Source: Acipenser ruthenus
Taxonomy: Eukaryota
Direction of reading: 5' to 3'
NCBI RefSeq assembly: GCF_902713425.1
Contig: NC_081214.1
Span: 10,944,641 to 11,008,640 of the forward strand
DNA length: 64,000 nucleotides
Numbering within the stretch: position 1 is the stretch's first letter; each line of letters opens with the position of its first letter. Below are positions 1 through 61,343 of this stretch, piece after piece. A program made the translations under genes and the position numbers. The notes beneath the pieces were generated by a model, which saw only the letters and a program-made list of their open reading frames with translations, ran no database searches and was not told where the DNA came from.

Positions 1-371
1 ATGACCATAGCCACGATTCAGTAACATGACCATAGCTACAATTCACTGACATGACCATAGCCACGGTTGAGTAACATGACATTAGCCACGATTGAGTAAC
101 ATGACCATAACCACGATTGAGTAACATGACCATAGCCAAGATTCAGTAACATGACCATAGCCACGATTCAGCAACATGACCATAGCTACGATTCAGTCAC
201 ATGACCATAGCCACGGTTGAGCAACATGACCATAGCCACGATTGAGTGTCATGACCATAGCCACGATTCAGTAACATGACCATAGCCACGATTCAGTCAC
301 ATGACCTTAGCCACGGTTGAGCAACATGACCATAGCCACGATTGAGTATGATGACCATAGCCATGATTCAG
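1..371. repeat. 25-bp tandem satellite, block A (consensus ATGACCATAGCCACGATTCAGTAAC)
   Basis: Direct head-to-tail 25-bp monomers readable in the sequence, with variants ...GGTTGAGTAAC and ...ATTCACTGAC. All copies have the same orientation. Confidence 0.95.
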
Positions 372-655
372 TAACATGATGTGGCAATATGCTCCGCCCC
401 TGTGTGCATTTGTGTGTTATGTGTTGTATGCCTCGTGTGTAAATGTTAGTGTATAGTCATTGGTACACAGGATATAAACAGGTCTGTGTTTCATGTGTAT
501 TTAAAAATGTAGATTTGTATTTAGGCACGAGAGGGGCACAAATCACTTCACGTGCTGCTTAAAATGTAATATGTGAGCACGGGGTTGCACGTAATTAATT
601 CACGTGCTGGGATTCAAGTGAATAATTAATTAGTAATTGAATCCCAGCACAACAG

Positions 656-664
656 TATATATAG
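656..664 (+). promoter_or_regulatory. TATA box inside LTR U3
   Basis: TATATATAG lies about 250 bp upstream of AATAAA and is conserved in all LTR copies (seen as tatatatact/tatatatag on the complementary strand in array copies). Confidence 0.55.
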
Positions 665-711
665 ATGCACGTTTGACTCACTCGTGGGTTGGGTGTTCGT
701 GAGTGGAGAAC

Positions 712-727
712 GGGAGAGAGAGAGAGG

Positions 728-774
<47 letters not shown>

Positions 775-781
775 CAGAAAA
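712..781 (+). repeat. (GA)n/(GAAA)n purine microsatellite inside solo LTR
   Basis: gagagagagagaggagaaagaaagaaag...aaagacagaaaag. Array LTR copies carry a different sequence at this position. Confidence 0.9.
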
Positions 782-911
782 GTTTGTTTTGCTTCACTCA
801 CCGTTTGTCTGTCTGTTTACTGTTTTAGTCCATTTTTGTTCGTCTATTTATTTTGGCCTCAAGTGCTGTGTCCTGTTTTCTGTTCTGTCTGTTTAACCAT
901 TTTACTTTCTT

Positions 912-917
912 AATAAA
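912..917 (+). promoter_or_regulatory. Polyadenylation signal AATAAA (LTR R region)
   Basis: AATAAA lies about 100 bp before the LTR 3' end. Array LTR copies have AATTATTAAATG (ATTAAA variant) at the same place. Confidence 0.5.
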
Positions 918-918
918 C

Positions 919-944
919 GCTGAGTGCTGCCATTTGCACTCAGC
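919..944 (+). other. Conserved stem-loop immediately after the polyA signal
   Basis: The stem is gctgagtgc/gcactcagc, 9 bp, with an 8-nt loop. Array LTR copies keep the stem gctgagc/gctcagc but have a different loop (gcgatcacgt). Confidence 0.5.
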
Positions 945-3900
945 TTCTCATCACCACCGTCTGTGTATTCCTTTCTGGTCTGACGCCACCCACTACGGCC
1001 GTCTTTGTGACACATGACCATAGCCACGATTCAGTAACATGACCATAGCCACGATTCAGCGACAAGACAATAGCCACGATTCACTGACACGAGCATAGCC
1101 ACGATTCACTGACATGACTATAGCCACGATTCATTGACATGACCATAGCCATGATTCAGTAACATGACCATAGCGACAATTCAGCAGCATGACCGTAGCC
1201 ACGATTCAGTAACATGACCATAGCCACGGTTGAGTAAGATGACCACAGTCAGGACTCAATAACATGACCATAGCCACGATTCAGTAACATGACCATAGCC
1301 ACGATTCACTGACATGACCATAGCCAAGGTTAAGTAACATTACCATAGCCATGGTTGTGTAAGAAGACCATAGCCACGATTTAGCAACATGACCATAGCC
1401 ACGATTCAGTAACATGACCATAGCCACGGTTGAGTAACATGACCATAGGCACGATACATTGAGATGACCATAGCCACGATTCATTGACCTGACCATAGCC
1501 ACGATTCACTGACATGACCATAGCCAAGGTTAAGTAACATGACCATAGCCATGGTTGTGTAAGAAGACCATAGCCACGATTTAGCAACATGACCATAGCC
1601 ACGATTCAATAACATGACCATAACCACGGTTGAGCAACATGACCATTGCCACTATGCATTGACATGACCATAGCCACGATTCATTGACATGACCATATCC
1701 ACGATTCAGCAACATGCCCATATCCACGATTCAGTAACATGACCATAGCCACGTTTGAGCAACATGACCATAGCCACGATTGAGTAACATGACAATAGCC
1801 ACGATACATTGAAATGACCATAGCCACGATTCATTGACATAACCATAGCCACAATTCAGTAACATGACTGTAGCCACAGTTGAATAACATGACCATAGGC
1901 ACGGTTGAGTAACATGAACAGAGCCACGGTTCAATAACATGACCATAGCCACTATTCAGTAATATGACCATAGCCACGAATGAGTAACATGACCATAGCC
2001 GTGATTCAGTAACATGACCAAAGCCACGGTTGAGTAACATGACCATATCCACGGTTGAGTAACATGACAATAGCCACGATTCAGCAACATGACCATAGAC
2101 ACGATTCAATAACATGACCATAGCCACGGTTGAGCAACATGACCATTGCCACGATGCATTGACATGACCATAGCCACGATTCATTGACATGACCATATCC
2201 ACGATTCAGCAACATGCCCATATCCATGATTCAGTAACATTACCATAGCCACGTTTGAGCAACATGACCATAGCCACGATTGAGTAACATGACAATAGCC
2301 ACGATACATTGAAATGACAATAGCCACGATTCATTGACATAACCATAGCCACAATTCAGTAACATGACTGTAGCCACAGTTGAATAACATGACCATAGGC
2401 ACGGTTGAGTAACATGACCATAGCCATGATTCAATAACATGACCATAGCCACGAATCAGTACCATGACCATAGCCACAATTCACTGACATGACCATAGCC
2501 ACGGTTGAGTAACATGACATTAGCTACGATTGAGTAACATGACCATAGCCACGATTGAGTAACATGACCATAGCCACGATTCAGTTACATGACCATAGCC
2601 ACGATTCAGCAACATGACCATAGCTATGATTGAGTATCATGACCATAGCCACGATTGAGTATCATGACCATAGCCACGATTCAGTAACATGACTATAGCC
2701 ACGATTCAGTCACATGACCATAGCCACGTTTGAGCAACATGACCATAGCCACAATTGAGTATCATGGCCATAGCCATGATTCAGTAACATGACCATAGCC
2801 ACGATTCAATAACATGACCATAGCCACAATTCACTGATATGACCATAGCCACAGTTGAGTAACATTACCATAGCCATGAATGAGCAACATGACCATAGCC
2901 ACGGTTGAGTAACATGACCATAGCCATGATTGAGCAACATGACCATAGCCACAGTTGAGTAACATGACCATAGCTACAATTCAGTAACATGACCATAGCC
3001 ACGGTTGAGCAACATGACCATAGCCACGATTCAGCGACACGACCATAGTCACGATTCAGTGACATGACCAAAGCCACGGCTGAGTAACATGACCATAACC
3101 ACAATTCACTGATATGACCATAGCCACAGTTGATTAACATTACCCTAGCCATGATTGAGCAACATGACCATAGCCACGGTTGAGTAACAGGACCATAGCC
3201 ACTATTGAGCAACATGACCATAGCCACGGTTGAGTAACATGACCATAACTACGATTCAGTAACATGACCATAGCCACGGTTGAGCAACATGACCATAACC
3301 ACGATTCAATAACATGACCATAGCCACAATTCACTGATATGGCCATAGCCACAGTTGAGTAACATTACCATAGCCATGAATGAGCAACATGACCATAGCC
3401 ACGGTTGAGTAACATGACCATAGCCACGATTGAGCAACATGACCATAGCCACAGTTGAGTAACATGACCATAGCTACAATTCAGTAACATGACCATAGCC
3501 ACGGTTGAGCAACATGACCATAGCCACGATTCAGCGACACGACCATAGTCACGATTCAGTGACATGACCAAAGCCACGGCTGAGTAACATGACCATAACC
3601 ACAATTCACTGATATGACCATAGCCACAGTTGATTAACATTACCCTAGCCATGATTGAGCAACATGACCATAGCCACGGTTGAGTAACATGACCATAGGC
3701 ACGATACATTGAGATGACCATAGCCACGATTCATTGACCTGACCATAGCCACGATTCATTGACCTGACCATAGCCACGATTTACTGACATGACCATAGCC
3801 AAGGTTAAGTAACATGACCATAGCCATGGTTGTGTAAGAAGACCATAGCCACGATTTAGCAACATGACCATAGCCACAATTCAATAACATGACCATAACC

Positions 3901-6843
3901 ACGGTTGAGCAACATGACCATTGCCACGATGCATTGACATGACCATAGCCACGATTCATTGACATGACCATATCCACGATTCAGCAACATGCCCATATCC
4001 ACGATTCAGTAACATGACCATAGCCACGTTTGAGCAACATGACCATAGCCACGATTGAGTAACATGACAATAGCCACGATACATTGAAATGACCATAGCC
4101 ACGATTCATTAACATGACTGTAGCCACAGTTGAATAACATGACTATAGGCACGGTTGAGTAACATGAACATAGCCACGGTTCAATAACATGACCATAGCC
4201 ACTATTCAGTAATATGACCATAGCCACGAATGAGTAACATGACCATAGCCGTGATTCAGTAACATGACCAAAGCCACGGTTGAGTAACATGACCATATCC
4301 ACGGTTGAGTAACATGACAATAGCCACGATTCAGCAACATGACCATAGACACGATTCAATAACATGACCATAGCCACGGTTGAGCAACATGACCATTGCC
4401 ACAATGCATTGACATGACCATAGCCACGATTCATTGACATGACCATATCCACGATTCAGCAACATGCCCATTTCCATGATTCAGTAACATTACCATAGCC
4501 ACGTTTGAGCAACATGACCATAGCCACGATTGAGTAACATGACAATAGCCACGATACATTGAAATGACCATAGCCACGATTCATTGACATAACCATAGCC
4601 ACAATTCAGTAACATGACTGTAGCCACAGTTGAATAACATGACCATAGGCACGGTTGAGTAACATGACCATAGCCACGATTCAATAACATGACCATAGCC
4701 ACGATTCAGTACCATGACCATAGCCACAATTCACTGACATGACCATAGCCATGGTTGAGTAACATGACATTAGCTACGATTGAGTAACATGACCATAGCC
4801 ACGATTGAGTAACATGACCATAGCCACGATTCAGTTACATGACCATAGCCACGATTCAGCAACATGACCATAGCTATGATTGAGTATCATGACCATAGCC
4901 ACGATTGAGTATCATGACCATAGCCACGATTCAGTAACATGACTATAGCCACGATTCAGTCACATGACCATAGCCACGGTTGAGCAACATGACCATAGCC
5001 ACAATTGAGTATCATGGCCATAGCCATGATTCAGTAACATGACCATAGCCACGATTCAATAACATGACCATAGCCACAATTCACTGATATGACCATAGCC
5101 ACAGTTGAGTAACATTACCATAGCCATGAATGAGCAACATGACCATAGCCACGGTTGAGTAACATGACCATAGCCACGATTGAGCAACATGACCATAGCC
5201 ACAGTTGAGTAACATGACCATAGCTACAATTCAGTAACATGACCATAGCCACGGTTGAGCAACATGACCATAGCCACGATTCAGCGACACGACCATAGTC
5301 ACGATTCAGTGACATGACCAAAGCCACGGCTGAGTAACATGACCATAACCACAATTCACTGATATGACCATAGCCACAGTTGATTAACATTACCCTAGCC
5401 ATGATTGAGCAACATGACCATAGCCACGGTTGAGTAACAGGACCATAGCCACTATTGAGCAACATGACCATAGCCACGGTTGAGTAACATGACCATAACT
5501 ACGATTCAGTAACATGACCATAGCCACGGTTGAGCAACATGACCATAACCACGATTCAATAACATGACCATAGCCACAATTCACTGATATGACCATAGCC
5601 ACAGTTGAGTAACATTACCATAGCCATGAATGAGCAACATGACCATAGCCATGGTTGAGTAACAGGACCATAGCCACTATTGAGCAACATGACCATAGCC
5701 ACGGTTGAGTAACATGACCATAACTATGATTCAGTAACATGACCATAGCCACGGTTGAGCAACATGACCATAGCCACGATTCAGCGACACGACCATAGCC
5801 ACGATTCACTGACATGACCAAAGCCATGGTTGAGTAACATGACCACAGTCACGATTCAATAACATGACCATAGCCACGATTCAGCAACATGACCATATCT
5901 ATGATTGAGTATCATGACCATAGCCATGATTGAGTATCATGACCATAGCCACGATTCAGTAACATGACTATAGCCACGATTCAGTCACATGACCATAGCC
6001 ACGGTTGAGCAACATGACCATAGCCACGATTGAGTATCATGACCATAGCCACGATTCAGTCACATGACCATAGCCATGGTTGAGTAACATGACCACAGTC
6101 ACGATTGAGTATCATGACCATAGCCACGATTCAGTAACATGTCCATAGCCACGATTCAGCGACATGACCATAGCCACGATTCACTGACATGACCATAGCC
6201 ACGATTCACTGACATGACCATAGCCACGATTCACTGACATGACCATAGCCACGATTCACTGACATGACCATAGCCACGATTCATTGACATGACCGTAGCC
6301 ATGATTCAGTAACATGACCATAGCGACAATTCAGCAGCATGACCATAGCCACGATTCAGTAACATGACCATTACCACGGTTGAGTAACTTGACCACAGTC
6401 AGGACTCAATAACATGACCATAGCCATGATTCAGTAACATGACCATAGCGACAATTCAGCAGCATGACCATAGCCACGATTCAGTAACATGACCATTGCC
6501 ACGGTTGAGTAACATGACCATAGCCACGATTCAGTAACATGACCATAGCCACGATTCAGCGACATGACCATAGCCACGATTCAGTAACATGACCATAGCT
6601 ACAATTCACTGACATGACCATAGCCACGGTTGAGTAACATGACATTAGCCACGATTGAGTAACATGACCATAACCACGATTGAGTAACATGACCATAGCC
6701 AAGATTCAGTAACATGACCATAGCCACGATTCAGCAACATGACCATAGCCACGATTCAGTCACATGACCATAGCCACGGTTGAGCAACATGACCATAGCC
6801 ACGATTGAGTATGATGACCATAGCCATGATTCAGTAACATGAT

Positions 6844-6889
6844 GTGGCAATATGCTCCGCCCCTGTGTGCATTCGTGTGTTATGTGTTA
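6844..6889 (+). mobile_element. 46-bp stub of the LTR 5' end (TGTGGCAATATGCTCCGCCCCTGTGTGCATTCGTGTGTTATGTGTTA)
   Basis: It matches the first about 46 bp of the solo LTR. The 300 bp upstream of it is near-identical to positions 20-371. Confidence 0.8.
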
Positions 6890-8262
6890 CTAGCCACAGT
6901 TGAGTAACATTACCATAGCCATGAATGAGCAACATGACCATAGCCACGATTGAGCAACATGACCATAGCCACGGTTGAGCAACATGACCATAGCCACGAT
7001 TCAGCGACACTACCATAGTCACGATTCAGTGACATGACCAAAGCCACGGCTGAGTAACATGACCATAACCACATTTCACTGATATGACCATAGCCACAGT
7101 TGATTAACATTACCCTAGCCATGATTGAGCAACATGACCATAGCCACGGTTGAGTAACAGGACCATAGCCACTATTGAGCAACATGACCATAGCCACGGT
7201 TGAGTAACATGACCATAACTACGATTCACTGACATGACCAAAGCCATGGTTGAGTAACATGACCACAGTCACGATTCAATAACATGACCATAGCCACGAT
7301 TCAGCAACATGACCATAGCTATGATTGAGTATCATGACCATAGCCACGATTGAGTATCATGACCATAGCCATGATTCAGTAACATGACTATAGCCACGAT
7401 TCAGTCACATGACCATAGCCACGGTTGAGCAACATGACCATAGCCACGATTGAGTATCATGACCATCGCCACGATTCAGTCACATGACCATAGCCACGGT
7501 TGAGTAACATGACCACAGTCACGATTCAATAACATGACCATAGCCACGATTCAGTAACATGTCCATAGCCACGATTCAGCGACATGACGATAGCCACGAT
7601 TCACTGACATGACCATAGCCACGATTCACTGACATGACCATAGCCACGATTCACTGACATGACCATAGCCACGATTCACTGACATGACCATAGCCACGAT
7701 TCACTGACATGACCATAGCCATGATTCATTGACATGATCGTAGCCATGATTCAGTAACATGACCATAGCGACAATTCAGCAGCATGACCATAGCCATGAT
7801 TCAGTAACATGACCATTGCCACGGTTGAGTAACATGACCACAGTCAGGACTCAATAACATGACCATAGCCACGATTCAGTAACATGACCATAGCCACGAT
7901 TCAGCGACATGACCATAGCCACGATTCAGTAACATGACCATAGCTACAATTTACTGACATGACCAAAGCCACGGTTGAGTAACATGACATTAGCCACGAT
8001 TGAGTAACATGACCATAACCACGATTGAGTAACATGACCATAGCCAAGATTCAGTAACATGACCATAGCCACGATTCAGCAACATGACCATAGCTACGAT
8101 TCAGTCACATGACCATAGCCACGGTTGAGCAACATGACCATAGCCACGATTGAGTGTCATGACCATAGCCACGATTCAGTAACATGACCATAGCCACGGT
8201 TGAGCAACATGACCATAGCCACGATTGAGTATGATGACCATAGCCATGATTCAGTAACATGT

Positions 8263-8301
8263 TGTGGCAATGTGCGCCGCCCCTGTGTGCATTTGTGTGT
8301 A
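8263..8301 (+). mobile_element. 39-bp stub of the LTR 5' end (TGTGGCAATGTGCGCCGCCCCTGTGTGCATTTGTGTGT)
   Basis: It matches the LTR start and has the same upstream satellite context as 372 and 6844. Confidence 0.8.
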
Positions 8302-11300
8302 TATCCACGGTTGAGTAACATGACAATAGCCACGATTCAGCAACATGACCATAGACACGATTCAGTAACATGACCATAGCCACGGTTGAGCAACATGACC
8401 ATTGCCACGATGCATTGACATGACCATAGCCACGATTCATTGACTTGACCATATCCACGATTCAGCAATATGACTATAGCCACGATTCAGTAACATGACC
8501 ATAGCCACGTTTGAGCAACATGACCATAGCCACGATTGAGTAACATGACCATAGCCACGATACATTGAAATGACCATAGCCACGATTCATTGACATAACC
8601 ATAGCCACGATTCAGTAACATGACTGTAGCCACAGTTGAATAATATGACCATAGGCACGGTTGAGTAACATGACCATAGCCACGATTCAATAACATGACC
8701 ATAGCCACGATTCAGTAACATGACCATAGCCACAATTCACTGACATGACCATAGCCACGGTTGAGTAACATGACATTAGCTACGATTGAGTAACATGACC
8801 ATAGCCGCGATTGAGTAACATGACCATAGCCACGATTCAGTTACATGACCATAGCCACGATTCAGCAACATGACCATAGCTATGATTGAGTATCATGACC
8901 ATAGCCACGATTGAGTATCATGACCATAGCCACGATTCAGTAACATGACTATAGCCACGATTCAGTCACATGACCATAGCCACGATTCAGCAACATGACC
9001 ATAGCTATGATTGAGTGTCATGACCATAGCCACGATTGAGCAACATGACCATAGCCACGATTAAGTATCATGACCATAGCCACGATTCAGTAACATGACC
9101 ATAGCCACGATTCAGTAACATGACCATAGCCACGATTCAGCAACATGACCATAGCCACGATTCAGCAACATGACCATAGCTATGATTGAGTGTCATGACC
9201 ATAGCCACGATTGAGTATCATGACCATAGCCACGATTCAGTCACATGACCATAGCCACGATTCAGTCACATGACCATAGCCACGTTTGAGCAACATGACC
9301 ATAGCCACGATACATTGAAATGACCATAGCCACGATTCATTGACATAACCATAGCCACGATTCAGTAACATGACTGTAGCCACAGTTGAATAACATGAAC
9401 ATAGGCATGGTTGAGTAACATGAACATAGCCACGATTCAATAACATTACCATAGCCACGATTCAGTAACATGACCATAGCCACAATTCACTGACATGGCC
9501 ATAGCCAAGGTTGAGTAACATGACATTAGCTACGATTGAGTAACATGACCATAGCCACGATTCAGTTACATGACCATCGCCACGATTCAGCATCATGACC
9601 ATAGCTATGATTGAGTATCATGACCATAGCCACGATTGAGTATCATGACCATAGCCACGATTCAGTAACATGACCATAGCCACGATTCAGCAACATGACC
9701 ATAGCTATGATTGAGTGTCATGACCATAGCCACAATTGAGCAACATGACCATAGCCACGATTCAATAACATGACCATAGCCACAATTCACTGATATGACC
9801 ATAGCCACAGTTGAGTAACATTGCCCTAGCCATGAATGAGCAACATGACCATAGCCACGATTGAGCAACATGACCATAGCCACGATTGAGTATCATGGCC
9901 ATAGTCACGATTGAGTATCATGGCCATAGCCACGATTCAGTAACATGACCATAGCCACGATTCAGTAACATGACTATAGCCACGATTCAGTCACATGACC
10001 ATAGCCACGGTTGAGCAACATGACCATAGCCACGATTGAGTATCATGGCCATAGCCACGATTCAGTAACATGACCATAGCCACGATTCAGTACCATGACC
10101 ATAGCCACGATTCAGTAACTTGACCATAACCACGATTCAATAACATGACCATAGCCACAATTCACTGATATGACCATAGCCACAGTTGAGTAACATTGCC
10201 CTAGCCATGAATGAGCAACATGACCATAGCCACAGTTGAGTAACATGACCATAGCCACGATTGAGCAACATGACCATAGCCACAGTTGAGTAACATGACC
10301 ATAGCTACAATTCAGTAACATGACCATATCCACGGTTGAGCAACATGACCATAGCCACGATTCAGCGACACGACCATAGTCACGATTCAGTGACATGACC
10401 AAAGCCACGGCGGAGTAACATGAACATAACCACAATTCACTGATATGACCATAGCCACAGTTGAGTAACATTACCCTAGCCATGATTGAGTAACATGACC
10501 ATAGCCACGGTTGAGTAACATGACCATAGCCACGATTCAATAACATGACCATAGCCACGGTTGAGTAACATGACCATAACTACGATTCAGTAACATGACC
10601 ATAGCCACGGTTGAGCAACATGACCATAGCCACGATTGAGTAACATGACCATAGGCACGATACATTGAGATGACCATAGCCACGATTCATTGACCTGACC
10701 ATAGCCACGATTCATTAACATTACTGTTGCCACAGTTGAATAACATGACTATAGGCACTGTTGAGTAACATGAACATAGCCACGATTCAATAACATGACC
10801 ATAGCCACGATTCAGTAACATGACCATAGCCACGATTCAGCAACATGACCATAGCCACGATTCAGCAACATGACCATAGCTATGATTGAGTGTCATGACC
10901 ATAGCCACGATTGAGTATCATGACCATAGCCATGATTCAGTAACATGACTATAGCCACGATTCAGTAACATGACCATAGCCACGTTTGAGCAACATGACC
11001 ATAGCCACGATACATTGAAATGACCATAGCCACGATTCATTGACATAACCATAGCCACGATTCAGTAACATGACTGTAGCCACAGTTGAATAACATGACC
11101 ATAGGCACGGTTGAGTAACATGACCATAGCCACGATTCAATAACATGACCATAGCCACGGTTGAGCAACATGACCATTGCCACGATGCATTGACATGACC
11201 ATAGCCACAATTCATTGACATGACCATATCCACGATTCAGCAACATGCCCATATCCACGATTCAGTAACATGACCATAGCCACGTTTGAGCAACATGACC

Positions 11301-11977
11301 ATAGCCACGAAACATTGAAATGACCATAGCCACGATTCATTGACATAACCATAGCCACGATTCAGTAACATGACTGTAGCGACAGTTGAATAACATGACC
11401 ATAGGCACGGTTGAGTAACATGACCATTGCCACGATTCAATAACATGACCATAGTCACGATTCAGTAACATGACCATAGCCACAATTCACTGACATGACC
11501 ATAGCCACGGTTGAGTAACATGACATTAGCTACGATTGAGTAACATGACCATAGCCACGATGGAGTAACATGACCGTATCCACGGTTGAGTAACATGACA
11601 ATAGCCACAATTCAGCAACATGACCATAGACACGATTCAGTAACATGACCATAGCCACGGTTGAGCAACATGACCATTGCCACGATGCATTGACATGACC
11701 ATAGCCACGATTCATTGACATGACCATATCCACGATTCAGCAACATGCCCATATCCACGATTCAGTAACATGACCATAGCCACGTTTGAGCAACATTACC
11801 ATAGCCACGAAACATTGAAATGACCATAGCCACGATTCATTGACATAACCATAGCCACGATTCAGTAACATGACTGTAGCCACAGTTGAATAACATGACC
11901 ATAGCCACGATTCAGTTACATGACCATAGCCACGATTCAGCAACATGACCATAGCTATGATTGAGTATCATGACCAG

Positions 11978-39372: not shown

Positions 39373-39879
39373 CTAGGGCTGTGGAAGCCCCGACTTCCCT
39401 CTCTTCGGGCTGTGGACGCACCGACTCCTCCCTTTTGGGCTGTGGACGCACCGACTCCTCCCTTTTGGGCTGTGGACGCACCGACTCCTCCCTTTTGGGC
39501 TGTGGACGCACCGACTCCCCCCTCTTGGGCTTAGGACTTTCGGGCTCCCCCCACTCAGACGTAGGACGTTCGGGCTCCTCCCAGTCAGGCGTAGGACGTT
39601 CGGGCTCCCACTCAGGCGTAGGACGTTCGGGCTCCTCCCACTCAGGCTAGGACGTTCGGGCTCCTCCCGCTTGGGCTGTGGATGCTCAGTTTCCTCCCAC
39701 TTAGGTTGTGAACGCTCAGGCTCCTCCTCATAACTGCGGAAGGGACAGTTGGCGAACAGATGATCCTGGTCGCAGAGGATGCACCCCGGCGTTGGCTTGT
39801 TAAATCGCCGAGGATGTCTGGCCCTTAGGCGGCACTCCTCCTCCCTGTCCTTCACCTCTTTATCCTCCTTCCATCCCAT
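39373..39879 (-). CDS. Gag-like N-terminal ORF, unit 5
   Basis: Same as units 3 and 4 except one substitution (CILCDQ). Confidence 0.4.
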   Translation of the reverse strand: MGWKEDKEVKDREEECRLRARHPRRFNKPTPGCILCDQDHLFANCPFRSYEEEPERSQPKWEETEHPQPKREEPERPSLSGRSPNVLRLSGSPNVLRLTGRSPNVLRLSGGSPKVLSPRGGSRCVHSPKGRSRCVHSPKGRSRCVHSPKGRSRCVHSPKRGKSGLPQP

Positions 39880-39991
39880 TTTATTTATTTATATATAGAT
39901 TTTTTTTGTAATCAATTTTTTTTTCCCCAAAAAAATGCGGTTCCTGCTCTGGCCTGAGTCCTGGAGGCGCTGTCGTCCCGGTTCTGACACT

Positions 39992-40566
39992 ATGTGTCAC
40001 AAAGACGGCCGGAGTGGGTGGCGTCAGACCAGATCCAGGATATAAACAACAGAGACTTGGAGTTTTGGTGAAGCTGAGCACGTGATCGCGCTCAGCATTT
40101 AATAATTAACAGACCAGAAAATAAAAAGGGTTGAACACAAAACAGGACACGGCACTTCACGCCAAAATAAAGAGACAAACAAAGCAGACTACACAGAAAA
40201 ACACGATGAGCTTCTATTCTTCACAATTACCTCCGTCTCCAATCCCGATCTCCACTCACCGAACACACAACCCCGATTGAATGAAAATGTGTCTATATAT
40301 ACTGTTGTGCTGGCATTCAATTACCAATTAATTATTCACTTGAATCCCAGCACGTGAATTCATTACATGCAACCCCGTGCTAACATATTACACTTAACCA
40401 GCACGTGAAGTGATTTGTGCCCTCCTCATGCCTAAATACAAATCTACATTTTTAAATACACGTGAAACACAGACCCGTTTATATCCCGTGGACCAATCTC
40501 TATACACCAACATTAACACACGCAACATACAACACTTAACACACAGGGGCGGGGCGCATTGCCACA
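39992..40566 (-). mobile_element. LTR copy 5 of array
   Basis: Same boundaries. The internal region on its 5' side (40567-42694) has no further LTR. Confidence 0.8.
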
Positions 40567-51600: not shown

Positions 51601-54600
51601 TTCTGTAACATGACCATAGCCACGACTCAGCGACATGACCTTAGGGACGATTCAATAACTTGACATGGTTGAGCAAAATGACCTTAGCCACGATTGAGTA
51701 ACATGATCATAGCCACGATTTAATAACATACCATAGCTACGATTTAGTAAAATGACCATAGCCACGATTCACTGACATGACCATAGCCACGGTTGAGTAA
51801 CATGACCATAGCCATGATTAAATAACATGACCATAGTAACGATTCAGTAACATGACCATAGCCACTTTTGACTAGCATGACCATAGCTACGATTGAGCAA
51901 TATGACCATAGCCACGATTGAGCAACATGACCATAGCCAAGGTTGAGTAACATGACAACAGCGATTGAGTAAAATGAAAATAGCCACGACTGATCAACAT
52001 GACCTTAGCCACGGTTCAGTAACATGACCATATCCACGATTGAGTAAGATGACCATAGCCACGATTCAGTAACATGACCATAGCCACGATTCACTGACAT
52101 GACCATAGCCGTGATTCAGTAACATGACCATAGCCAAGATTGAGTATCATGACCATAGACACGGTTCAGCAACATGACCATAGCCACGATTCAATAACAT
52201 GACCATAGCCGCGATTCAGTAACATGGCCATAGCTACGATTTAGTAACATGACCATATCCAAGGTTGAGCAACATCCACCATAGCCTCCATTGAGTAACA
52301 TGACCATAGCCACGACTGAGTAAGATGACCATAGCCACGTTTGAGAAATATGACCATAACCACGATTTAATAACATGCCATAGCTATGATTCAGTAAAAT
52401 GACCATAACAACGATTCACTGATATGACCATAGCCACGGTTGAGTAACATGACCATAGCCATGATTAAATAACATGACCATAGCCACGATTCAGTAACAT
52501 GACCATATTCACGATTGAGGTACATGACCTTAGCTACGATTCAGTAAAATGACCATAGCCACGTTTGAGTAACATGACCATAGCCACGATTCAATAACAT
52601 GCCATAGCTACGATTCAGTAAAATGACCATATCCACGATTCACTGAAATGACCATAGCCACGTTTGAGTAACATGACCATAGCCATGATTAAATGACATG
52701 ACCATAGCCACGATTCACTGACATGACCATAGCCACGATTGAGCAACATGACCATAGCCACGATTCAATAACATGCCATAGCTACGATTCAGTAAAATGA
52801 CCATATCCACGATTCACTGAAATGACCATAGCCACGTTTGAGTAACATGACCATAGCCATGATTAAATAACATGACCATAGCCACGATTCACTGACATGA
52901 CCATAGCCACGATTGAGCAACATGACCATAGCCTCGATTCAGTAATATGACCATAGCCACGATTAAGTAACATGACCATAGCCATGGTTGAGCAACATGA
53001 CCATAGCCACAAATGAGTAAAATGGCCATAGCCACGACTGAGCAACATGACCATAGCCACGATGGAGTAACATGACCATAGCCACAATTGAGTAACGACC
53101 ATAGCAACGATTGAGCAACATGACCATAGCCAGGGTTGAGCAACATGACCATAGCCACAAATGAGTAAAATGGCCATAGCCACAACTGAGCAACATGACC
53201 ATAGCCACGGTTGAGCAACATGACCATAGCCACGATGGAGTAACATGACCATAGCCACGATTGAACAACATGACCATATCCACGATTCTGTAACATGACC
53301 ATGGCCACGACTAAGCGACATGACCTTACGCACGATTCAATAACTTGACCATAGCCACGGTTGAGCAAAATGACCATAGCCACGATTCACTGACATGACC
53401 ATAGCCACGGTTGAGTACCATGACCATATCCATGATTAAATAACATGACCATAGTCACGATTCAGTAACATGACCATAGTCACGATTGAGGTACATGACC
53501 ATAGCCACGATTCAGTAACATGACGATAGCCTCAATTCAGCGACATGGCCATAGCAACGATTCACCGACATGACCATAGCTCAATTCAGCGAGATGGCCA
53601 CAGCAACGATTCAGTAACATGACCATAGCCACGACTGAGTAACATGACCGTAGCCACTTTTGACTAGCATGACCATAGCTACGATTGAGCAATATGACCA
53701 TAGCCACGACTCAATAACATGACCATAGCCACGATTCAGTAACATGACCATAGCCACAATTCAGTAACATGACCATAGCCACGATTCACTGATATGACCA
53801 TAGCCACGATTGAGTAAAATGAAAATAGCCACGATTGAGCAACATGACCATAGCCACAATTGAGCAACATGACCATAGGAATGATTCAGTAACGTGACCA
53901 TAGCCACGATTCAGTAACATGAACTTAGCCACGGTTGAGTAACATGACCATAGCCAGGTTTCAGTAAAATGACCATAGCCACGATTCAGTAACATGAAAA
54001 TAGCCACGATTGAGCAACATGACCATAGCCACAATTCAATGACATGACCATAGCCGTGATTCAGTAACATGACCATAGCCGCGATTCAGTAACATGACCA
54101 TAGCTACGATTTAGTAACATGACCATATACAAGGTTGAGCAACATCCACCATAGCCTCCATTGAGTAACATGACCATAGCCACGATTGAGTAAGATGACC
54201 ATAGCCACGTTTGAGAAATATGACCATAACCACGATTTAATAACATGCCATAGCTATGATTCAGTAAAATGACCATAACAACGATTCACTGATATGACCA
54301 TAGCCACGGTTGAGTAACATGACCATAGCCATGATTAAATAACATGACCATAGCCACGATTCAGTAACATGACCATATTCACGATTGAGGTACATGACCT
54401 TAGCTACGATTCAGTAAAATGACCATAGCCACATTTGAGTAACATGACCATAGCCACGATTCAATAACATGCCATAGCTACGATTCAGTAAAATGACCAT
54501 ATCCACGATTCACTGAAATGACCATAGCCACGTTTGAGTAACATGACCATAGCCATGATTAAATAACATGACCATAGCCACGATTCACTGACATGACCAT

Positions 54601-56385
54601 AGCCACGATTGAGCAACATGACCATAGCCTCGATTCAGTAATATGACCATAGCCACGATTAAGTAACATGACCATAGCCATGGTTGAGCAACATGACCAT
54701 AGCCACAAATGAGTAAAATGGCCATAGCCACGACTGAGCAACATGACCATAGCCACGATGGAGTAACATGACCATAGCCACAATTGAGTAACGACCATAG
54801 CAACGATTGAGCAACATGACCATAGCCAGGGTTGAGCAACATGACCATAGCCACAAATGAGTAAAATGGCCATAGCCACAACTGAGCAACATGACCATAG
54901 CCACGGTTGAGCAACATGACCATAGCCACGATGGAGTAACATGACCATAGCCACGATTGAACAACATGACCATATCCACGATTCTGTAACATGACCATGG
55001 CCACGACTCAGCGACATGACCTTAGGCACGATTCAATAACTTGACCATAGCCACGGTTGAGCAAAATGACCATAGCCACGATTCACTGACATGACCATAG
55101 CCACGGTTGAGTACCATGACCATAGCCATGATTAAATAACATGAATAATCACGATTCAGTAACATGACCATAGCCAAGATTCAGTAACATGACCATAGCC
55201 TCAATTCAGCGACATGGCCATAGCAACGATTCACCGACATGACCATAGCTCAATTCAGCGAGATGGCCACAGCAACAATTCAGTAACATGACCATAGCCA
55301 CGACTGAGTAACATGACCGTAGCCACTTTTGACTAGCATGACCATAGCTACGATTGAGCAATATGACCATAGCCACGACTCAATAACATGACCATAGCCA
55401 CGATTCAGTAACATGACCATAGCCACGATTCACTGATATGACCATAGCCACGATTGAGTAAAATGAAAATAGCCACGATTGAGCAACATGACCATAGCCA
55501 CAATTGAGCAACATGACCATAGGAATGATTCAGTAACGTGACCATAGCCACGATTCAGTAACATGAACTTAGCCACGGTTGAGTAACATGACCATAGCCA
55601 GGTTTCAGTAAAATGACCATAGCCACGATTCAGTAACATGAAAATAGCCACGATTGAGCAACATGACCATAGCCACAATTCAATGACATGACCATAGCCG
55701 TGATTCAGTAACATGATCATAGCCGCGATTCAGTAACATGACCGTAGCCATGAATGAGTAACATGACCATAGCCACGGTTTAGAAACATGACTATAGCCA
55801 CGATGGAGCAACATGACCATAGCCTCGATTCAGTAACATGACCATAGCCACGATTAAGTAACATGACCATAGCCATGGTTGAGCAACATGACCATAGCCA
55901 CGATTAAGTAACATGACCATAGCCACGATTGAGCAACATGACCATAGCAACGATTGAGCAACATGACCATAGCAAAGATTGAGCAACATGACCATAGCCA
56001 CGGTTGAGCAATATGACCATAGCCACGATTGAGGACCATGACCATAGCTGCGATTGAGTAATATGACCATAGCCACGGTTGAATAACATGACTATAACCA
56101 GGTTTAAGTAACATGACCTTAGAATCGATTCAGTAACATGAACATTGCCACGGTTGAGTAACATGACCATAACCAGGTTTAAGTAACATGACCATAGCTA
56201 CGGTTCAGCAACATGACAATAGCCACGATTGAGCAACATGACCATAGCCACGATTGAGTAACATGACCATAGCCACGATTGAGTAACATGACCATAGCCA
56301 TGATTCAGTAACATGACCATAGTCATGATTGAGGACCATGACCATAGCTGCGATTGAGTAATATGACCATAGCCACAGCTGAATA
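42695..56385. repeat. 25-bp tandem satellite, block C, with variable higher-order repeats of about 1.7-2.1 kb
   Basis: Same monomer and orientation. Identical ORF-track translations recur at +2108 (47263 and 49371; 48350 and 50458), +1733, +1870 and +1696. Confidence 0.95.
44017..44253 (+). mobile_element. tRNA-derived CORE/MIR-like SINE inserted in the satellite
   Basis: The tRNA-like head is gtggactagtggttagggc...gggttcaatcccc (A and B boxes). The central CORE-like segment is cccttgagcaaggtactttacct...ctgtataaatgggtaatt. The LINE-type tail is ttgtaagtcgccctggataagggcgtctgctaa followed by (AAAT)n. It is flanked by an ATAACC target-site duplication at 44011-44016 and 44254-44259. Confidence 0.8.
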
Positions 56386-56420
56386 ACATAAGAACATAAG
56401 AACATAAGAACATAAGAAAG
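56386..56420 (-). repeat. Octamer microsatellite tail (TTCTTATG)n at the LINE 3' end
   Basis: The plus strand reads ataagaacataagaacataagaacataagaaag. This style of 3' end is characteristic of CR1-type LINEs. Confidence 0.8.
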
Positions 56421-56467
56421 TTTACAACCGAGAGGAGGCCATTCAGCCCATCTTGCTCGTTTGGTTG

Positions 56468-58021
56468 TTAGTAGCTTATTGATCCCAGAATCTCATCAAG
56501 CAGCTTCTTGAAGGATCCAAGGGTGTCAGATTCAACAAGATTACTGGGGAGTTGATTCCAGACCCTCACAATTCTCTGTGTAAAACAGTGCCTCCTATTT
56601 TCTGTTCTGAATGCCCCTTTATCTAATCTCCATTTATGACCCCTGGTCCTTTTTTCTTTTTTCAAGTCAAAGAAGTCCCCCGGGTTGACATTGTCTATAC
56701 CTTTTACGATTTTGAATGTTTGAATCAGATCGCCGCGTAGTCTTCTTTGTTCAAGACTGAATAGATTCAATTCTTTTAGCCTGTCTGCATACGACATGCC
56801 TTTTAAACCTGGGATAATTCTGGTTGCTCTTCTTTGCACTCTTTCTAGAGCAGCAATATCCTTTTTGTAATGAGGTGACCAGAACTGAACACAATATTCT
56901 AGGTGAGGTCTTACTAATGCATTGTAGAGTTTTAACATTACTTCCCTTGATTTAAAGTCAACACTTCTCACAATATATCCAAGCATCTTGTTGGCCTTTT
57001 TTATAGCTTCCCCACATTGTCTAGATGAAGACATTTCTGAGTCAACATAAACTCCTAGGTCTTTTTCATAGTTCCCTTCTTCAATTTCACTATCTCCGAT
57101 ATGATATTTATAATGCACATTTTTATTGTCCGCATGCAATACTTTACACTTTTCTCTATTAAATTTCATTTGCCATGTGTCTGCCCAATTTTGAATGCTG
57201 TCTAGATCATTTTGAATGACCTTTGCTGCTTCAACAGTGTCTGCCACTCCTCCTATTTTTGTGTCGTCTGCAAATTTAACGAGTTTGCTTACTATATCAG
57301 AGTCTAAATCATTAATGTAGATTAGGAATAGCAGAGGACCTAATACTGATCCCTGTGGTACACCACTGGTTACCTCACTCCATTTCGAGGTTTCTCCTCT
57401 AATCAGTACTTTCTGTTTTCTACCTGTTAACCACTCCCTAATCCATGTGCATGCATTTCCTTGAATCCCTACTGCGTTCAGTTTGAGAATTAATCTTTTA
57501 TGCGGGACTTTGTCAAAAGCTTTCTGGAAATCTAAATAAACCATGTCGTATGCTTTGCAGTTATCCATTTTCAATGTTGCATCCTCAAAAAAGTCAAGTA
57601 GGTTAGTTAGACATGATCTCCCTTTCCTAAAACCATGCTGGCTGTCTCCCAGGATATTGTTACCATATAAGTAATTTTCCATTTTGGATCTTATTATAGT
57701 TTCCATAAGTTTACATATAATAGAAGTCAGGCTTATTGGTCTGTAGTTACCTGGTTCGGTTTTGTCTCCCTTTTTGTGGATTGGTATTACATTTGCTATT
57801 TTCCAGTCTGTTGGTACAACCCCTGTGTCAAGAGACTGTTGCATGATCTTGGTTAGCGGTTTGTAAATAACTTCTTTCATTTCTTTGAGTACTATTGGGA
57901 GGATCTCATCCGGCCCAGGGGATTTGTTTATTTTAAGAGCTCCTAGTCCCTTTAACACTTCTGCCTCTGTTATGCTAAAGTTATTTAAAACTGGATAGGA
58001 ACAGGTCGACATGTCAGGCAT
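56468..58021 (-). CDS. LINE ORF2 reverse-transcriptase domain (517 aa)
   Basis: RT motifs are present: NYRPISLTS, QHGFRKGRSC, PQGSVLGPLLFLIYINDL, and FADDTKI (the F/YXDD box). Confidence 0.85.
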   Translation of the reverse strand: MPDMSTCSYPVLNNFSITEAEVLKGLGALKINKSPGPDEILPIVLKEMKEVIYKPLTKIMQQSLDTGVVPTDWKIANVIPIHKKGDKTEPGNYRPISLTSIICKLMETIIRSKMENYLYGNNILGDSQHGFRKGRSCLTNLLDFFEDATLKMDNCKAYDMVYLDFQKAFDKVPHKRLILKLNAVGIQGNACTWIREWLTGRKQKVLIRGETSKWSEVTSGVPQGSVLGPLLFLIYINDLDSDIVSKLVKFADDTKIGGVADTVEAAKVIQNDLDSIQNWADTWQMKFNREKCKVLHADNKNVHYKYHIGDSEIEEGNYEKDLGVYVDSEMSSSRQCGEAIKKANKMLGYIVRSVDFKSREVMLKLYNALVRPHLEYCVQFWSPHYKKDIAALERVQRRATRIIPGLKGMSYADRLKELNLFSLEQRRLRGDLIQTFKIVKGIDNVNPGDFFDLKKEKRTRGHKWRLDKGAFRTENRRHCFTQRIVRVWNQLPSNLVESDTLGSFKKLLDEILGSISY

Positions 58022-58214
58022 GTTGTCCGTGTCCTCCTTTGTAAAAACCTGTGAAAAGTAATCATTTAATATATTTGCTATTTTTTTTTCTTCATCTATG
58101 ATTTTGCCATTTGTGTCTCTTAGACATTTAACCTCCTCTTTGAATGTTCTCTTGCTGTTATAATATTGGAAAATATTTTCGAATTGGTTTTAGCCCCCTT
58201 AGCAATATTGATTT

Positions 58215-58628
58215 CTATCTCTCTCTCTTGGCCTTTCTAACTTCCTTTTTTACTTGTGTTTGCAGTTCCAAGTACTCTTTCTGTGTGCTTTGTTTTTGGT
58301 CCCTTTTAAACGCTCTGTAAAGTGCCTTTTTTCGCTGAATATTTTTTTTAATTGATCTATTAAACCATTTTGGCCATTTTGTTTTAGATTTAGATTTGTC
58401 TACTTTTGGGATGTAATTGTTTTGTGCCTCTAGTACTACATTTTTAAAAAACAGCCACCCTTTTTCTGTGGATGTTTTCTCTATTTTACTCCAATCTACT
58501 TCTGTTAGTCTCTGTTTCATACCTTCGTAGTTTGCTTTTCTAAAATTGTAAACCTTAGCTTTAGTCATTACTTTTGGGGTTTTAAAAAATATTTCAAATG
58601 AGACCATGTTGTGGTCTGAGTTTGCCAA
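58215..58628 (-). pseudogene. LINE ORF2 EN-RT linker segment in a shifted frame
   Basis: It overlaps the EN ORF in a different frame; SDHNMV marks the C-terminus of the endonuclease. The frameshift suggests a pseudogene. Confidence 0.6.
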
Positions 58629-59290
58629 TGGCTCCTGACCTCTGTTTTAGTTATTCTGTCTTCATTATTTGAAAAGACTAAGTCAAGGCATGCCTCCCCT
58701 CTAGTCGGTGCCTTGACAAATTCCGTTAGGAAGCAGTCATTTGTCATTTCCACCATTTCAATTTCGTCCGTCGTGCCCCCCATCGGGTTTTCCCATTTTA
58801 TACAGGGGAAGTTGAAATCCCCCATTAGTATGGCTTCTCCTTTTCTACACGCATTTCGAATGTCATTGTATAACAGATTATTTTGCTCAGCGTCTGAATT
58901 TGGCGGTCTATAGCATGCTCCTATTATTATGCCCTTTGAATTTGTGTCCATTATTCTGACCCATATTGATTCTGCATTGTTTTCTTTGTCCTGATTTAAC
59001 ACCTGGGCTTCAAGGCTATTTCTTATGTATAGCGCTACCCCTCCACCTCTTCTGTCCTGCCTGTCTTTCCTATACAGTGTGTACCCACTAATATTATATT
59101 CGTCTCCATCACTCTCAGACAACCAAGTTTCTGTAACACCTATCACATCGTAGTTGCTTGTTAGTGCAGTAGCTTCAAGTTCTAACATTTTGTTTCTGAG
59201 ACTTCTAGCATTAAGATTAATACATTTAATAGTGGTCTTACCTGAGTTGTTGCCCTTGTTTTTATGTGGTCTCCCTTCTGTTTTTTTGTT
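58568..59290 (-). CDS. LINE ORF2 AP-endonuclease (EEP) domain
   Basis: ...TIKCINLNARSLRNKMLELEA...VIGVTETWL...GDFNFP... The frame stays open up to the 5' truncation point at about 59290. Confidence 0.75.
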   Translation of the reverse strand, partial: NKKTEGRPHKNKGNNSGKTTIKCINLNARSLRNKMLELEATALTSNYDVIGVTETWLSESDGDEYNISGYTLYRKDRQDRRGGGVALYIRNSLEAQVLNQDKENNAESIWVRIMDTNSKGIIIGACYRPPNSDAEQNNLLYNDIRNACRKGEAILMGDFNFPCIKWENPMGGTTDEIEMVEMTNDCFLTEFVKAPTRGEACLDLVFSNNEDRITKTEVRSHWQTQTTTWSHLKYFLKPQK

Positions 59291-61295
59291 TTCTCATGAC
59301 CATAACCAGGTTTAAGTAACATGACCATAGAATCGATTCAGTAACATGAACATTGCCACGGTTGAGTAACATGACCATAACCAGGTTTAAGTAACATGAC
59401 CATAGCTACGGTTCAGCAACATGACAATAGCCACGATTGAGCAACATGACCACAGCCACGATTGAGTAACATGACCATAGCCACGATTGAGCAACATGTC
59501 CATAGCTACGATTGAGGACCATGACCATAGCAGCAATTCAGTAACATACCATAGTCACGACTGAGTAACATGACCATAGCCACGATTCAGTAACATGACC
59601 ATAGCCACGATTCACTGATATGACCATAGCCACGATTGAGTAAAATGAAAATAGCCACGATTGAGCAACATGACCATAGCCACGATTGAGCAACATGACC
59701 ATAGCAATGATTCAGTAACGTGACCATAGCCACGATTCAGTAACATGAACTTAGCCACGGTTGAGTAACATGACCATAACAAGGTTTCAGTAAAATGACC
59801 ATAGCCACGATTCAGTAACATGAAAATAGCCACGATTGAGCAACATGACCATAGCCACAATTCAATGACATGACCATAGCCTTGATTCAGTAACATGATC
59901 ATAGCCGCGATTCAGTAACATGACCATAGCCATGAATGATTAACATGACCATAGCCACGGTTCAGAAACATGACTATAGCCTCGATTCAGTAACATGACC
60001 ATAGCCACGATTAAGTAACATGACCATAGCCATGGTTGAGCAACATAACCATAGCCATGATTGAGTAATGACCATAGCAACGATTGAGCAACTTGACTAT
60101 AGCCAGGGTTGAGCAACATGACCATAGCCACGATTGAGTAACATGACCAAAGCCACGATTGAGCAACATGACCATAGCTACGATTGAGGACCATGACCAT
60201 AGCTGCGATTGAGTAATATGACCATAGCCACGGTTGAATAACATGACCATAACCAGGTTTAAGTAACATGACCATAGAATCGATTCAGTAACATGAACAT
60301 TGCCACGGTTGAGTAACATGACCATAACCAGGTTTAAGTAACATGACCATAGCCACGGTTCAGCAACATGACAATAGCCACGATTGAGCAACATGACCAT
60401 AGCCACGATTGAGTAACATGACCATAGCCACGATTGAGCAACATGTCCATAGCTACGATTGAGGACCATGACCATAGCAGCGATTCAGTAACATGACCAT
60501 AGTCACGACTGAGTAACATGACCATAGCCACGATTCAGTAACATGACCATAGCCATGATTGAGTAACATGACCATAGCCACGGTTCAGCAACATGACCAT
60601 AGCCACGATTGAGCAACATGACCATAGCCATGGTTGAGCAACATGACCATAGCTACAATTGAGTAACATGACCTTAGCCACCATTCAGTAACATGACCAT
60701 AGCCACGGTTGAGCAACATGACCATAGCCACGATTGAGTAACATGACCATAGCCACGGTTGAGTAACATGACCATAGCCACGATTCAATAACTTATCATA
60801 GCTACAATTCAGTAACATGACCATAGCTACGATTCACTGACATGACCATAGCCATGGTTGAGTAACATGACCATAGCTGCGATTCAATAACATGACCATA
60901 GCCACGATTCAGTAACATAACCATAGCCACATTTCACTGACATGAGCATAGCCACGATTCAGTAACATTACCTTAGCCACGGTTGAGTAACATGACCATA
61001 GCCACGTTTCATTGACATGACCATAGCCACGATTCAGTAACATGACCATAGCCACGGTTGAGTAACATGACCATAGCCACGTTTCATTGACATGACCATA
61101 GCCACGATTCAGTAACATTACCTTAGCCACGATTCAGTAACATGACCATAGCCACAATTCATTGATATGACCATTGCCACGATTCAGTAACATGACCATA
61201 GCCACGATTCATTGACATGACCAATAGCCGCGATTAAGTAACATGACCATATTCACGATTCATTGACATGACCATAGCCACGATTCAGTAACATC
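59291..61295. repeat. 25-bp tandem satellite, block D
   Basis: Same monomer and orientation. Confidence 0.95.
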
Positions 61296-61343
61296 CATTG
61301 GGAAACACATGCTCCTGGACATTATAACCTTTGAGGCTGGCTT

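Follow-up and report, generated by a model that had tools for sequence, protein, structure and literature searches.

Is the 25-bp tandem repeat that runs through this 64-kb stretch of sturgeon DNA (the window) the satellite of a functional centromere, or ordinary satellite DNA? Our analysis indicates that the repeat is ordinary satellite DNA, recently reshuffled through local duplications, and that the locus most probably lies in the pericentromeric or terminal heterochromatin of a small chromosome.

Organization of the 25-bp satellite

The 25-bp repeat has the monomer consensus CATGACCATAGCCACGATTCAGTAA and is present in ~1,066 copies, arranged head-to-tail in four blocks of the window (A to D; 15 + 435 + 536 + 80 = 1,066 monomers by fuzzy segmentation; Table 1). 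TRF reports it at 1-379, 1012-11976, 42708-56376 and 59295-61294, with scores from 548 to 14,411, and 10-mer matches to the consensus are all located on the plus strand, with zero on the minus strand, across the whole window. TRF and the strand-specific 10-mer matches thus bear out the initial annotation in its description of one family in a single orientation across four blocks, and its placing of the satellite end near 61,295 agrees with the end that we read at about 61,297. The extent of the family, given there as ~44 kb, is in fact 26.8 kb, or 41.8% of the 64-kb window, while the remainder of positions 1-61,295 consists of 14.6 kb of a 72-bp satellite, 16.1 kb of a tandem LTR element and ~3.8 kb of other transposons. 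The description of the monomer as AT-rich is likewise weak: the consensus has 44% GC and the blocks have 43-44%, no more AT-rich than the transposon flank at 61,295-64,000 (41% GC).

Table 1. Coordinates and properties of the features of the window
Feature	Position	Strand	Properties	Evidence
Block A, 25-bp satellite	1..379	+	15 monomers; continues past left window edge	TRF, segmentation
Solo LTR	380..1012	+	633 bp; TG...CA ends; TSD CATGA at 375-379 and 1013-1017	sequence reading
Block B, 25-bp satellite	1012..11976	+	435 monomers	TRF, 10-mer matches, segmentation
Duplicated domain, block B	1465..5651	+	2250/2275-bp (90-91 monomers) and 500-bp (20 monomers) copies, 99.2-99.7% identical	diagonal segments, 40-mer spacing
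LTR scar 1	6843..6888	+	first 46 bp of solo LTR; left junction as at 380	
LTR scar 2	8263..8304	+	~41 bp; left junction as at 380	
72-bp satellite	11974..26600	+	68% GC; ~203 copies in one orientation; unrelated to 25-bp satellite	TRF
Tandem array of non-autonomous LTR retroelement	26600..42707	-	~5.3 units (3163, 3064, 3058, 3064 bp); both ends truncated	
Block C, 25-bp satellite	42708..56386	+	536 monomers	TRF, 10-mer matches, segmentation, junction reading
SINE-like insertion	44017..44253	+	(AAATA)n tail; TSD ATAACC at 44011-44016 and 44254-44259	sequence reading
HOR domain, block C	47129..55743	+	4-5 tandem copies (2108, 1883/1858, 1733, 1696 bp), 99.1-100% identical	40-mer spacing, diagonals
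CR1-like LINE 1	56385..59294	-	endonuclease and reverse transcriptase; (AACATAAG)n 3' tail; lies between monomers	Pfam RVT_1, Exo_endo_phos
Block D, 25-bp satellite	59295..61297	+	80 monomers	TRF, junction reading, diagonal segments
LINE 2, CR1-like, truncated	61343..62868	-	95.5% identical to LINE 1; right satellite edge in window	

Single arrays of the repeat reach 13.7 kb, the long head-to-tail arrangement by which satellite DNA is defined. The block consensus sequences are alike except at position 20, where C and G are split near-evenly. In addition, the sole CpG of the monomer, at positions 15-16, shows C-to-T change at 12% and G-to-A change at 14%, compared with ~1-5% at most other positions, and this raised TG/CA decay would fit methylation in the germline. 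In block B, 434 of the 435 monomers are exactly 25 bp long across 11 kb, despite ~11% substitution divergence. Such a strict register could hint at a length constraint, a feature that a satellite of no function does not explain.

The repeat is also non-coding, as satellite DNA is expected to be, judging by its period, its short stop-free stretches, and the absence of a protein homologue and of an Rfam family. Specifically, 25 bp is not a multiple of 3, and stop-free stretches of at least 90 codons occur in the array only on the minus strand, the longest having 165 codons. A 155-codon stretch (10,115-10,579, minus strand), considered as a coding candidate, was rejected, with no word-sharing candidate in 5.8 billion proteins, and no Rfam match was obtained in the window, where rRNA, snRNA and linkage to a NOR were looked for. 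A transposon origin of the monomer was sought by searching for 25-mers with at most 5 mismatches to any rotation of it, and neither the window beyond the arrays nor 110 kb of Acipenser sinensis loci contained one. The satellite has 0 occurrences in metagenome contigs and in five A. sinensis loci, collections that are ill-suited to eukaryotic satellites, so that absence from them means little; the same holds for the full text of roughly 8 million papers, in which monomer substrings were not found and which is ill-suited to satellite sequences.

Mobile elements within the satellite

Blocks A and B are demonstrably one array, and blocks C and D are demonstrably one array, each split by insertions. 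The monomer phase between A and B is restored after removal of the solo LTR and one copy of CATGA. On the other side, the satellite continues in phase from block C to block D across LINE 1, and segments common to the end of block C and to block D are 96-98% identical. LINE 1 shares 93% protein identity in the reverse transcriptase and 96.5% DNA identity with A. sinensis copies. The SINE-like insertion appears tRNA-derived; ARAGORN finds no tRNA anywhere in the window, this insertion included, and copies with 89-95% identity are present in A. sinensis loci. To the right of the satellite, an ORF at 63,208-63,633, which has no Pfam match, may be a gypsy-type pol fragment, and the family of the solo LTR recurs (89% identity) at 63,687-64,000 as well as in every 3-kb unit of the LTR-element array.

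Two scars in block B record the later history of the solo LTR. Both keep the left junction at which block A meets the LTR, and this shows that the insertion site was copied inside the array and that the LTR was afterwards mostly deleted. Positions 1-250 of block A match block B at offsets of 6563 (247 bp, 99.6%) and 7908 (250 bp, 99.2%).

Long-range copies and array turnover

The 40-mer spacing spectrum has peaks at 2250 and 500 bp in block B and at 2108, 1696, 1733 and 1883 bp in block C, exactly the long-range periods that had been proposed for the two blocks. The copies at these distances are 99.1-100% identical in diagonal segments, whereas neighbouring monomers are ~78-85% identical. The identity of 99-100% on a monomer background of about 80% supports the proposal that the arrays were recently homogenised. 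Block C contains true higher-order repeats (HORs), i.e., tandem multi-monomer units with an identity far above that of the monomers. The periods of block B are real, but they essentially represent two-copy segmental duplications rather than the regular multi-copy HOR that had been described. Whole-monomer indels, proposed as the source of the different unit lengths, account for the change from 2108 to 1733 bp between HOR copies 2 and 3, where length is altered solely by four deletions (225, 25, 100 and 25 bp) in otherwise 99.7% identical sequence, but not for the change from 1733 to 1696/1870 bp, where the differences are not multiples of 25.

Repeats of this type are error-prone in assemblies, and the near-identical long-range copies might accordingly reflect mis-joined or duplicated reads instead of biological HORs. 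However, the copies carry scattered substitutions (99.1-99.9% identity) and clean whole-monomer deletions, and the adjacent LTR macro-repeat is patterned likewise, with the middle most homogeneous and the edges more divergent. Furthermore, LTR scars with differing right-hand breakpoints are hard to obtain by mis-assembly. We therefore regard an assembly artefact as very improbable.

Judging from the pattern of the copies, local unequal exchange or tandem segmental duplication would turn the arrays over in steps of 0.3-2.3 kb, yielding young multi-monomer copies of 99-100% identity upon the older ~80% background, and the copies would afterwards contract via whole-monomer deletions. Mobile elements, namely the LTR element, the SINE and the CR1 LINEs, have entered the array and persist where it is less homogenised, and array turnover has itself duplicated, then eroded, one insertion site. 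Taken as a whole, the locus is, with high probability, a non-coding heterochromatic satellite of an acipenserid genome, shaped by local turnover and transposon insertions, and we ascribe to it no sequence-specific function.

The block between B and C

Blocks B and C are separated by 30.7 kb, comprising the 72-bp satellite and the LTR-element array. All BLAST matches of the 72-bp satellite in the window (219/219) are on the plus strand and inside its 14.6-kb array. Since the period of this satellite corresponds to 24 codons, the array was considered as coding and rejected: this 68% GC DNA has long ORFs, but they occupy several frames on both strands, and the 72-bp satellite is therefore non-coding.

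The LTR-element array contains an LTR match in each unit, with one LTR in common between adjoining units, and the unit has a polypurine tract 4 nt ahead of the LTR start. The units are 99.0-99.8% identical to each other, and the ORFs of the 3-kb unit have no Pfam match and include no pol gene. All of the 20 homologues of the element ORF come from A. sinensis, apparently from many different contigs, and A. sinensis has an LTR-internal-LTR copy of the same non-autonomous element. Together with the protein and DNA identities of LINE 1, these homologues place the window in an acipenserid genome. Tandem LTR-retrotransposon arrays with shared LTRs are the expected product of unequal recombination between LTRs. 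The array resembles them in its LTR-internal-LTR-internal order with a single LTR between units, but differs in that its internal region is only ~2.4 kb, packed with minisatellites, and lacks pol or any Pfam match.

The initial annotation interpreted the four blocks as one array invaded by insertions. This interpretation stands for the solo LTR (target-site duplication and phase), the SINE (target-site duplication) and LINE 1 (phase), but not for the 30.7-kb block, both ends of which are truncation junctions without transposon termini. In particular, the LTR array is cut within its own ORF at 42,707, the 72-bp satellite adjoins a monomer at 11,974, and this satellite is no mobile unit in its own right. 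A+B and C+D have, moreover, been homogenised as two domains: the median best match is 97% within domains and 88% between them, and the two share no recent copies. These observations count towards the alternative that A+B and C+D were never contiguous, and that the locus is a mosaic of satellite arrays (25-bp, 72-bp and LTR macro-repeat) assembled via rearrangement or segmental duplication, with the common orientation inherited from the segments that were duplicated. Against a mosaic, the 25-bp orientation is equal on either side and the block consensus sequences are equal, bar the one near-even position. The B-C junctions also keep the register given a 7-bp CATGACC duplication, which might be taken as evidence of insertion; however, some register-compatible fit of this kind arises by chance in ~40% of cases and the spacer does not constitute a mobile unit, and we therefore discount the duplication. 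On balance, a mosaic origin has a chance somewhat short of even.

Centromere or other heterochromatin

Several features are those expected if the repeat were a functional centromere satellite with a CENP-A-bound core, its transposons and other satellites marking decaying flanks. The homogenised HOR core at 47.1-55.7 kb lies between more divergent, transposon-bearing monomers, the monomer orientation is uniform, transposons are located within the satellite, and no sturgeon centromere repeat was found defined in the literature searched. However, local HORs and transposon insertions are found in any satellite array, and the arrays here are just 11-16 kb long, alternating with the 14.6-kb satellite and the 16-kb transposon array inside 64 kb. 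In addition, the window has 0 matches to the CENP-B core motif, and dyad symmetry is absent from the repeat, four monomers folding with a minimum free energy of -0.3 kcal/mol, a stability that each of 200 shuffles equals or exceeds. The CENP-B box and dyad symmetry are supportive, not strictly defining, traits of centromeric satellites. Furthermore, the known pericentromeric satellites of sturgeons are HindIII/ArutF167A and Arut19A, while the remaining short-unit satellites occupy terminal positions for the most part (PMC7699875). We consider a functional centromere satellite unlikely.

The mosaic of short arrays is a better match for generic heterochromatin on small sturgeon chromosomes than for a centromere. 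Placing the locus by judgement, we give terminal or interstitial heterochromatin about an even chance; pericentromeric heterochromatin is plausible though well short of that, and a CENP-A core is improbable. No TTAGGG telomere repeat, with 2 mismatches allowed, occurs in the 64 kb, which leaves room for a location farther inward on the chromosome.

It is similarly doubtful that the repeat is the CENP-A-binding DNA of small sturgeon chromosomes, with the register set by nucleosome or kinetochore-protein phasing. If so, few vertebrate centromeric satellites would have a unit as short, and it would function with neither a CENP-B box nor dyad symmetry. Sturgeons are polyploid, with many small chromosomes, and are prone to chromosome fissions and fusions. 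A centromeric locus would provide the first sequence-defined centromere for sturgeons, none having been found in the literature searched, and its monomer would also be a simple oligo probe with which to sort look-alike small sturgeon chromosomes. As heterochromatin, the locus brings no new principle, and serves as a small-scale example of satellite turnover in which a dated transposon insertion has been copied and eroded and HOR copies contract by whole monomers.

Comparison with known satellites

The 25-bp satellite resembles primate alpha satellite in its uniform orientation, its homogenised multi-monomer repeat, its divergent transposon-bearing flanks and its unequal exchange. Alpha satellite, however, has a unit of 171 bp, forms arrays on the Mb scale, carries a CENP-B box and is proven to bind CENP-A, whereas the 25-bp satellite has kb-scale domains, only 2-5 HOR copies and no CENP-B box.

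Among sturgeon satellites, HindIII/ArutF167A (about 170 bp) maps to pericentromeric heterochromatin (PMC7699875). HindIII (ArutF167A) and PstI satellites are specific to Acipenseridae, and their unit lengths differ from 25 bp. The small chromosomes of sturgeons are rich in heterochromatin, and short-unit satellites map by FISH to terminal as well as pericentromeric positions (PMC7699875). The short-unit satellites include Arut19A, ArutF26A, Arut30A, Arut40A and Arut57A (Biltueva et al. 2017; FISH in PMC7699875). Of these, ArutF26A is nearest to the 25-bp satellite in unit length, a likeness of length, and differs in being located on NOR-bearing chromosomes, while the window is without rDNA. 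The 25-bp repeat is possibly a new family, the named sturgeon satellites having been compared with it by unit length. All five short-unit satellites resemble it in having sturgeon hosts, tandem units of 19-57 bp, and a location in heterochromatin mainly on small chromosomes.

The 25-bp satellite forms four blocks in one orientation

TRF and base composition partition the window into four blocks (A–D) of one 25-bp satellite, a 72-bp satellite, a tandem macro-repeat and transposon-derived DNA. Fuzzy segmentation of the window resolves 1,066 monomers, whose consensus is CATGACCATAGCCACGATTCAGTAA. The satellite is real and occupies 26.8 kb, or 41.8% of the window, rather than the ~44 kb of the initial annotation. 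Consensus 10-mers of the family lie on the + strand in every case, with 0 reverse matches in the window, verifying the proposed single orientation. The monomer had also been described as AT-rich, but its GC content is 44%, that of the blocks 43–44% and that of flanking transposon DNA 41%, which makes it no richer in AT than its surroundings.

Features of the window, the satellites and macro-repeat being delimited by TRF and base composition
Feature	Coordinates	Strand	Remarks
25-bp satellite, block A	1-379	+	
Solo LTR	380-1012		633-bp insert
25-bp satellite, block B	1012-11,976	+	
Segment in block B	1860-3401		partner 4110-5651, offset 2250, identity 99.3%
Segment in block B	2799-3189		partner 3299-3689, offset 500, identity 99.5%
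LTR scar in block B	6843-6888		first 46 bp of solo LTR
LTR scar in block B	8263-8304		first ~41 bp of solo LTR
72-bp satellite	11,974-26,600	+	68% GC
Macro-repeat	26,600-42,707	−	~3,064 bp, 5.3 units
25-bp satellite, block C	42,708-56,386	+	
SINE	44,017-44,253		(AAATA)n tail, target-site duplication ATAACC
Segment in block C	47,129-48,844		partner 49,237-50,952, offset 2108, identity 99.7%
LINE 1	56,385-59,294		CR1-like
25-bp satellite, block D	59,295-61,297	+	
Transposon debris	61,297-64,000		
LTR copy	63,687-64,000	+	89% identity, cut by window end

The 5′ half of the monomer, CATGACCATAGCC, is mostly 91–100% conserved, except at position 1 (78%, block C) and position 13 (82–86%, blocks A, C and D), while the 3′ half is variable, with C and G at ~50:50 at position 20. 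The only CpG, at positions 15-16, reads TG in 12% and CA in 14% of cases across all 25-bp blocks, compared with ~1–5% change at most other positions; this fits methylation-driven decay and suggests that the array is methylated in the germline. Of the 435 monomers in block B, 434 measure exactly 25 bp, a register kept across 11 kb despite ~11% substitution divergence. Block C, unlike block B, contains many monomers of 22–26 bp.

Homogenisation is recent, and only block C carries a tandem higher-order repeat

In the 40-mer spacing spectrum, block B has its peaks at 2250 and 500 bp; those of block C fall at 2108, 1696, 1733 and 1883 bp. All of them exactly reproduce the periods read initially. 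Diagonal chaining recovered the underlying segments, including further ones at offsets of 1883, 1858, 1733 and 1696 with 99.6–99.8% identity. Because long-range copies are 99.3–99.8% identical and adjacent monomers share just ~78–85% identity, homogenisation is recent, as had been claimed.

The initial annotation assigned higher-order repeats (HORs) to both blocks. A true tandem HOR, with 4–5 copies, is present in block C only, whereas the 'periods' of block B are two-copy segmental duplications plus a partial third copy. The proposed shrinkage by whole-monomer indels holds between HOR copies 2 and 3, which are 99.7% identical and whose sole length changes are deletions of 225, 25, 100 and 25 bp, each a whole number of monomers, but not for later copies, whose length differences are not multiples of 25.

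Insertions split the blocks pairwise

The insert between blocks A and B starts with TG, ends with CA and has CATGA on either side; excising it with one CATGA copy regains a perfect monomer. These features identify the insert as a solo LTR whose target-site duplication is 5 bp long. Further copies of this LTR family, at 89% identity, occur once per macro-repeat unit (− strand) and again at the right end of the window. Both LTR scars in block B share their left junction with position 380 and differ in their right junctions, and the satellite immediately to their left is 99.2–99.6% identical to block A. Array turnover thus copied the insertion site twice, after which most of the LTR was deleted. 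The scars directly demonstrate duplication postdating insertion.

LINE 1 encodes Exo_endo_phos and RVT_1 domains and ends in a (AACATAAG)n tail, beyond which the satellite continues in phase. LINE 2 begins at 61,343 and is 95.5% identical to LINE 1. The closeness of the LINE to Acipenser sinensis (93% identity of its reverse transcriptase to a protein of that species, 96.5% identity of its DNA to a copy there), together with the SINE copies below, places the window in a sturgeon-family genome. At each of the two boundaries with a LINE (56376-56420 and 61290-61345), the satellite breaks off in the same phase of the monomer (...GTAACAT), and the tail unit AACATAAG has AACAT in common with the monomer, which might reflect microhomology-primed CR1 insertion into the satellite. 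At 61290-61345, 46 bp without explanation separate satellite from LINE tail. The SINE, located in an older, less homogenised portion of block C, reads as putatively tRNA-derived, and ARAGORN called no tRNA in it; related copies (89–95% identity) are found at A. sinensis loci. A 141-codon ORF (− strand, 63,208-63,633) adjoins the terminal LTR copy; a Pfam search of it gave no match, and it has a motif reminiscent of gypsy-type RNase H/integrase linkers.

Given the target-site duplications and the monomer or phase restored at the inserts, blocks A and B are one array split by insertions, and likewise C and D.

The 30.7 kb between blocks B and C

Between blocks B and C lie 30.7 kb of other repeats. 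The 72-bp satellite (~203 copies, all +) is non-coding and, within the window, confined to this block. It has internal sub-repeats of ~21–29 bp and shares its strand skews with the 25-bp satellite, C exceeding G and A exceeding T. The macro-repeat consists of tandem copies of a non-autonomous LTR element, each unit comprising one LTR, which adjacent units have in common, and a ~2.4-kb internal part rich in minisatellites, with a polypurine tract 4 nt ahead of the LTR. Unit identity is 99.0–99.8% at the centre and 96.6–98.7% at the edges. Its ORF has a CX2CX3HX4C zinc-knuckle-like motif, no match in a Pfam search and 20 homologues, every one of them from A. sinensis, apparently spread over many different contigs. 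A. sinensis also holds an LTR-internal-LTR copy with 1.5 kb of additional internal sequence (compare 7728-12234 of L001, a locus compared with the macro-repeat).

The initial annotation envisaged a single ancestral array with later insertions, which applies within A/B and within C/D. Both outer junctions of the 30.7-kb block are truncations, however: the LTR array breaks off within its ORF (42,707), and the 72-bp array directly adjoins a monomer (11,974). CATGACC, common to both junctions, would preserve register, but some fit of this sort is expected ~40% of the time by chance. Furthermore, A+B and C+D each form a homogenisation domain of their own: the best non-self match has a median of 97% within a domain and 88% across domains. 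Blocks B and C may therefore once have been contiguous or may always have been separate.

Centromere function and known sturgeon satellites

Centromere function of the 25-bp satellite, as initially proposed, is a candidate reading that is unsupported. Any satellite can show local HORs, a single orientation and inserted transposons, which are hence neutral. Against it, the 25-bp arrays are of short length, alternate with a second satellite and a transposon array, and have neither CENP-B box nor dyad symmetry: no match to the CENP-B core motif was found, and four monomers fold at −0.3 kcal/mol, with 200 of 200 shuffles folding at least as well. No telomere repeat, rDNA or tRNA gene occurs in the window, so no other compartment is indicated. 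We consider it unlikely that the locus would be a CENP-A core; by our estimate, the remaining probability lies with pericentromeric, or terminal or interstitial, heterochromatin of a small chromosome.

The literature searched contained no sturgeon centromere defined by CENP-A, and a full-text search of ~8 million papers gave no match to monomer substrings. Sturgeon cytogenetics has described HindIII and PstI satellites and, in the sterlet, Arut19A, ArutF26A, Arut30A, Arut40A, Arut57A, ArutF167A, Arut219A, Arut434A and Arut802A. By FISH, Arut19A is pericentromeric, Arut30A, Arut40A and Arut57A are for the most part terminal, and ArutF26A marks NOR-bearing chromosomes together with a few other small ones; short-unit repeats lie chiefly on the numerous small, heterochromatin-rich chromosomes (PMC7699875). 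Compared with the Arut repeats by description only, the family may still be unnamed in the open literature, and the 25-bp satellite is an unremarkable example of a familiar sequence type.
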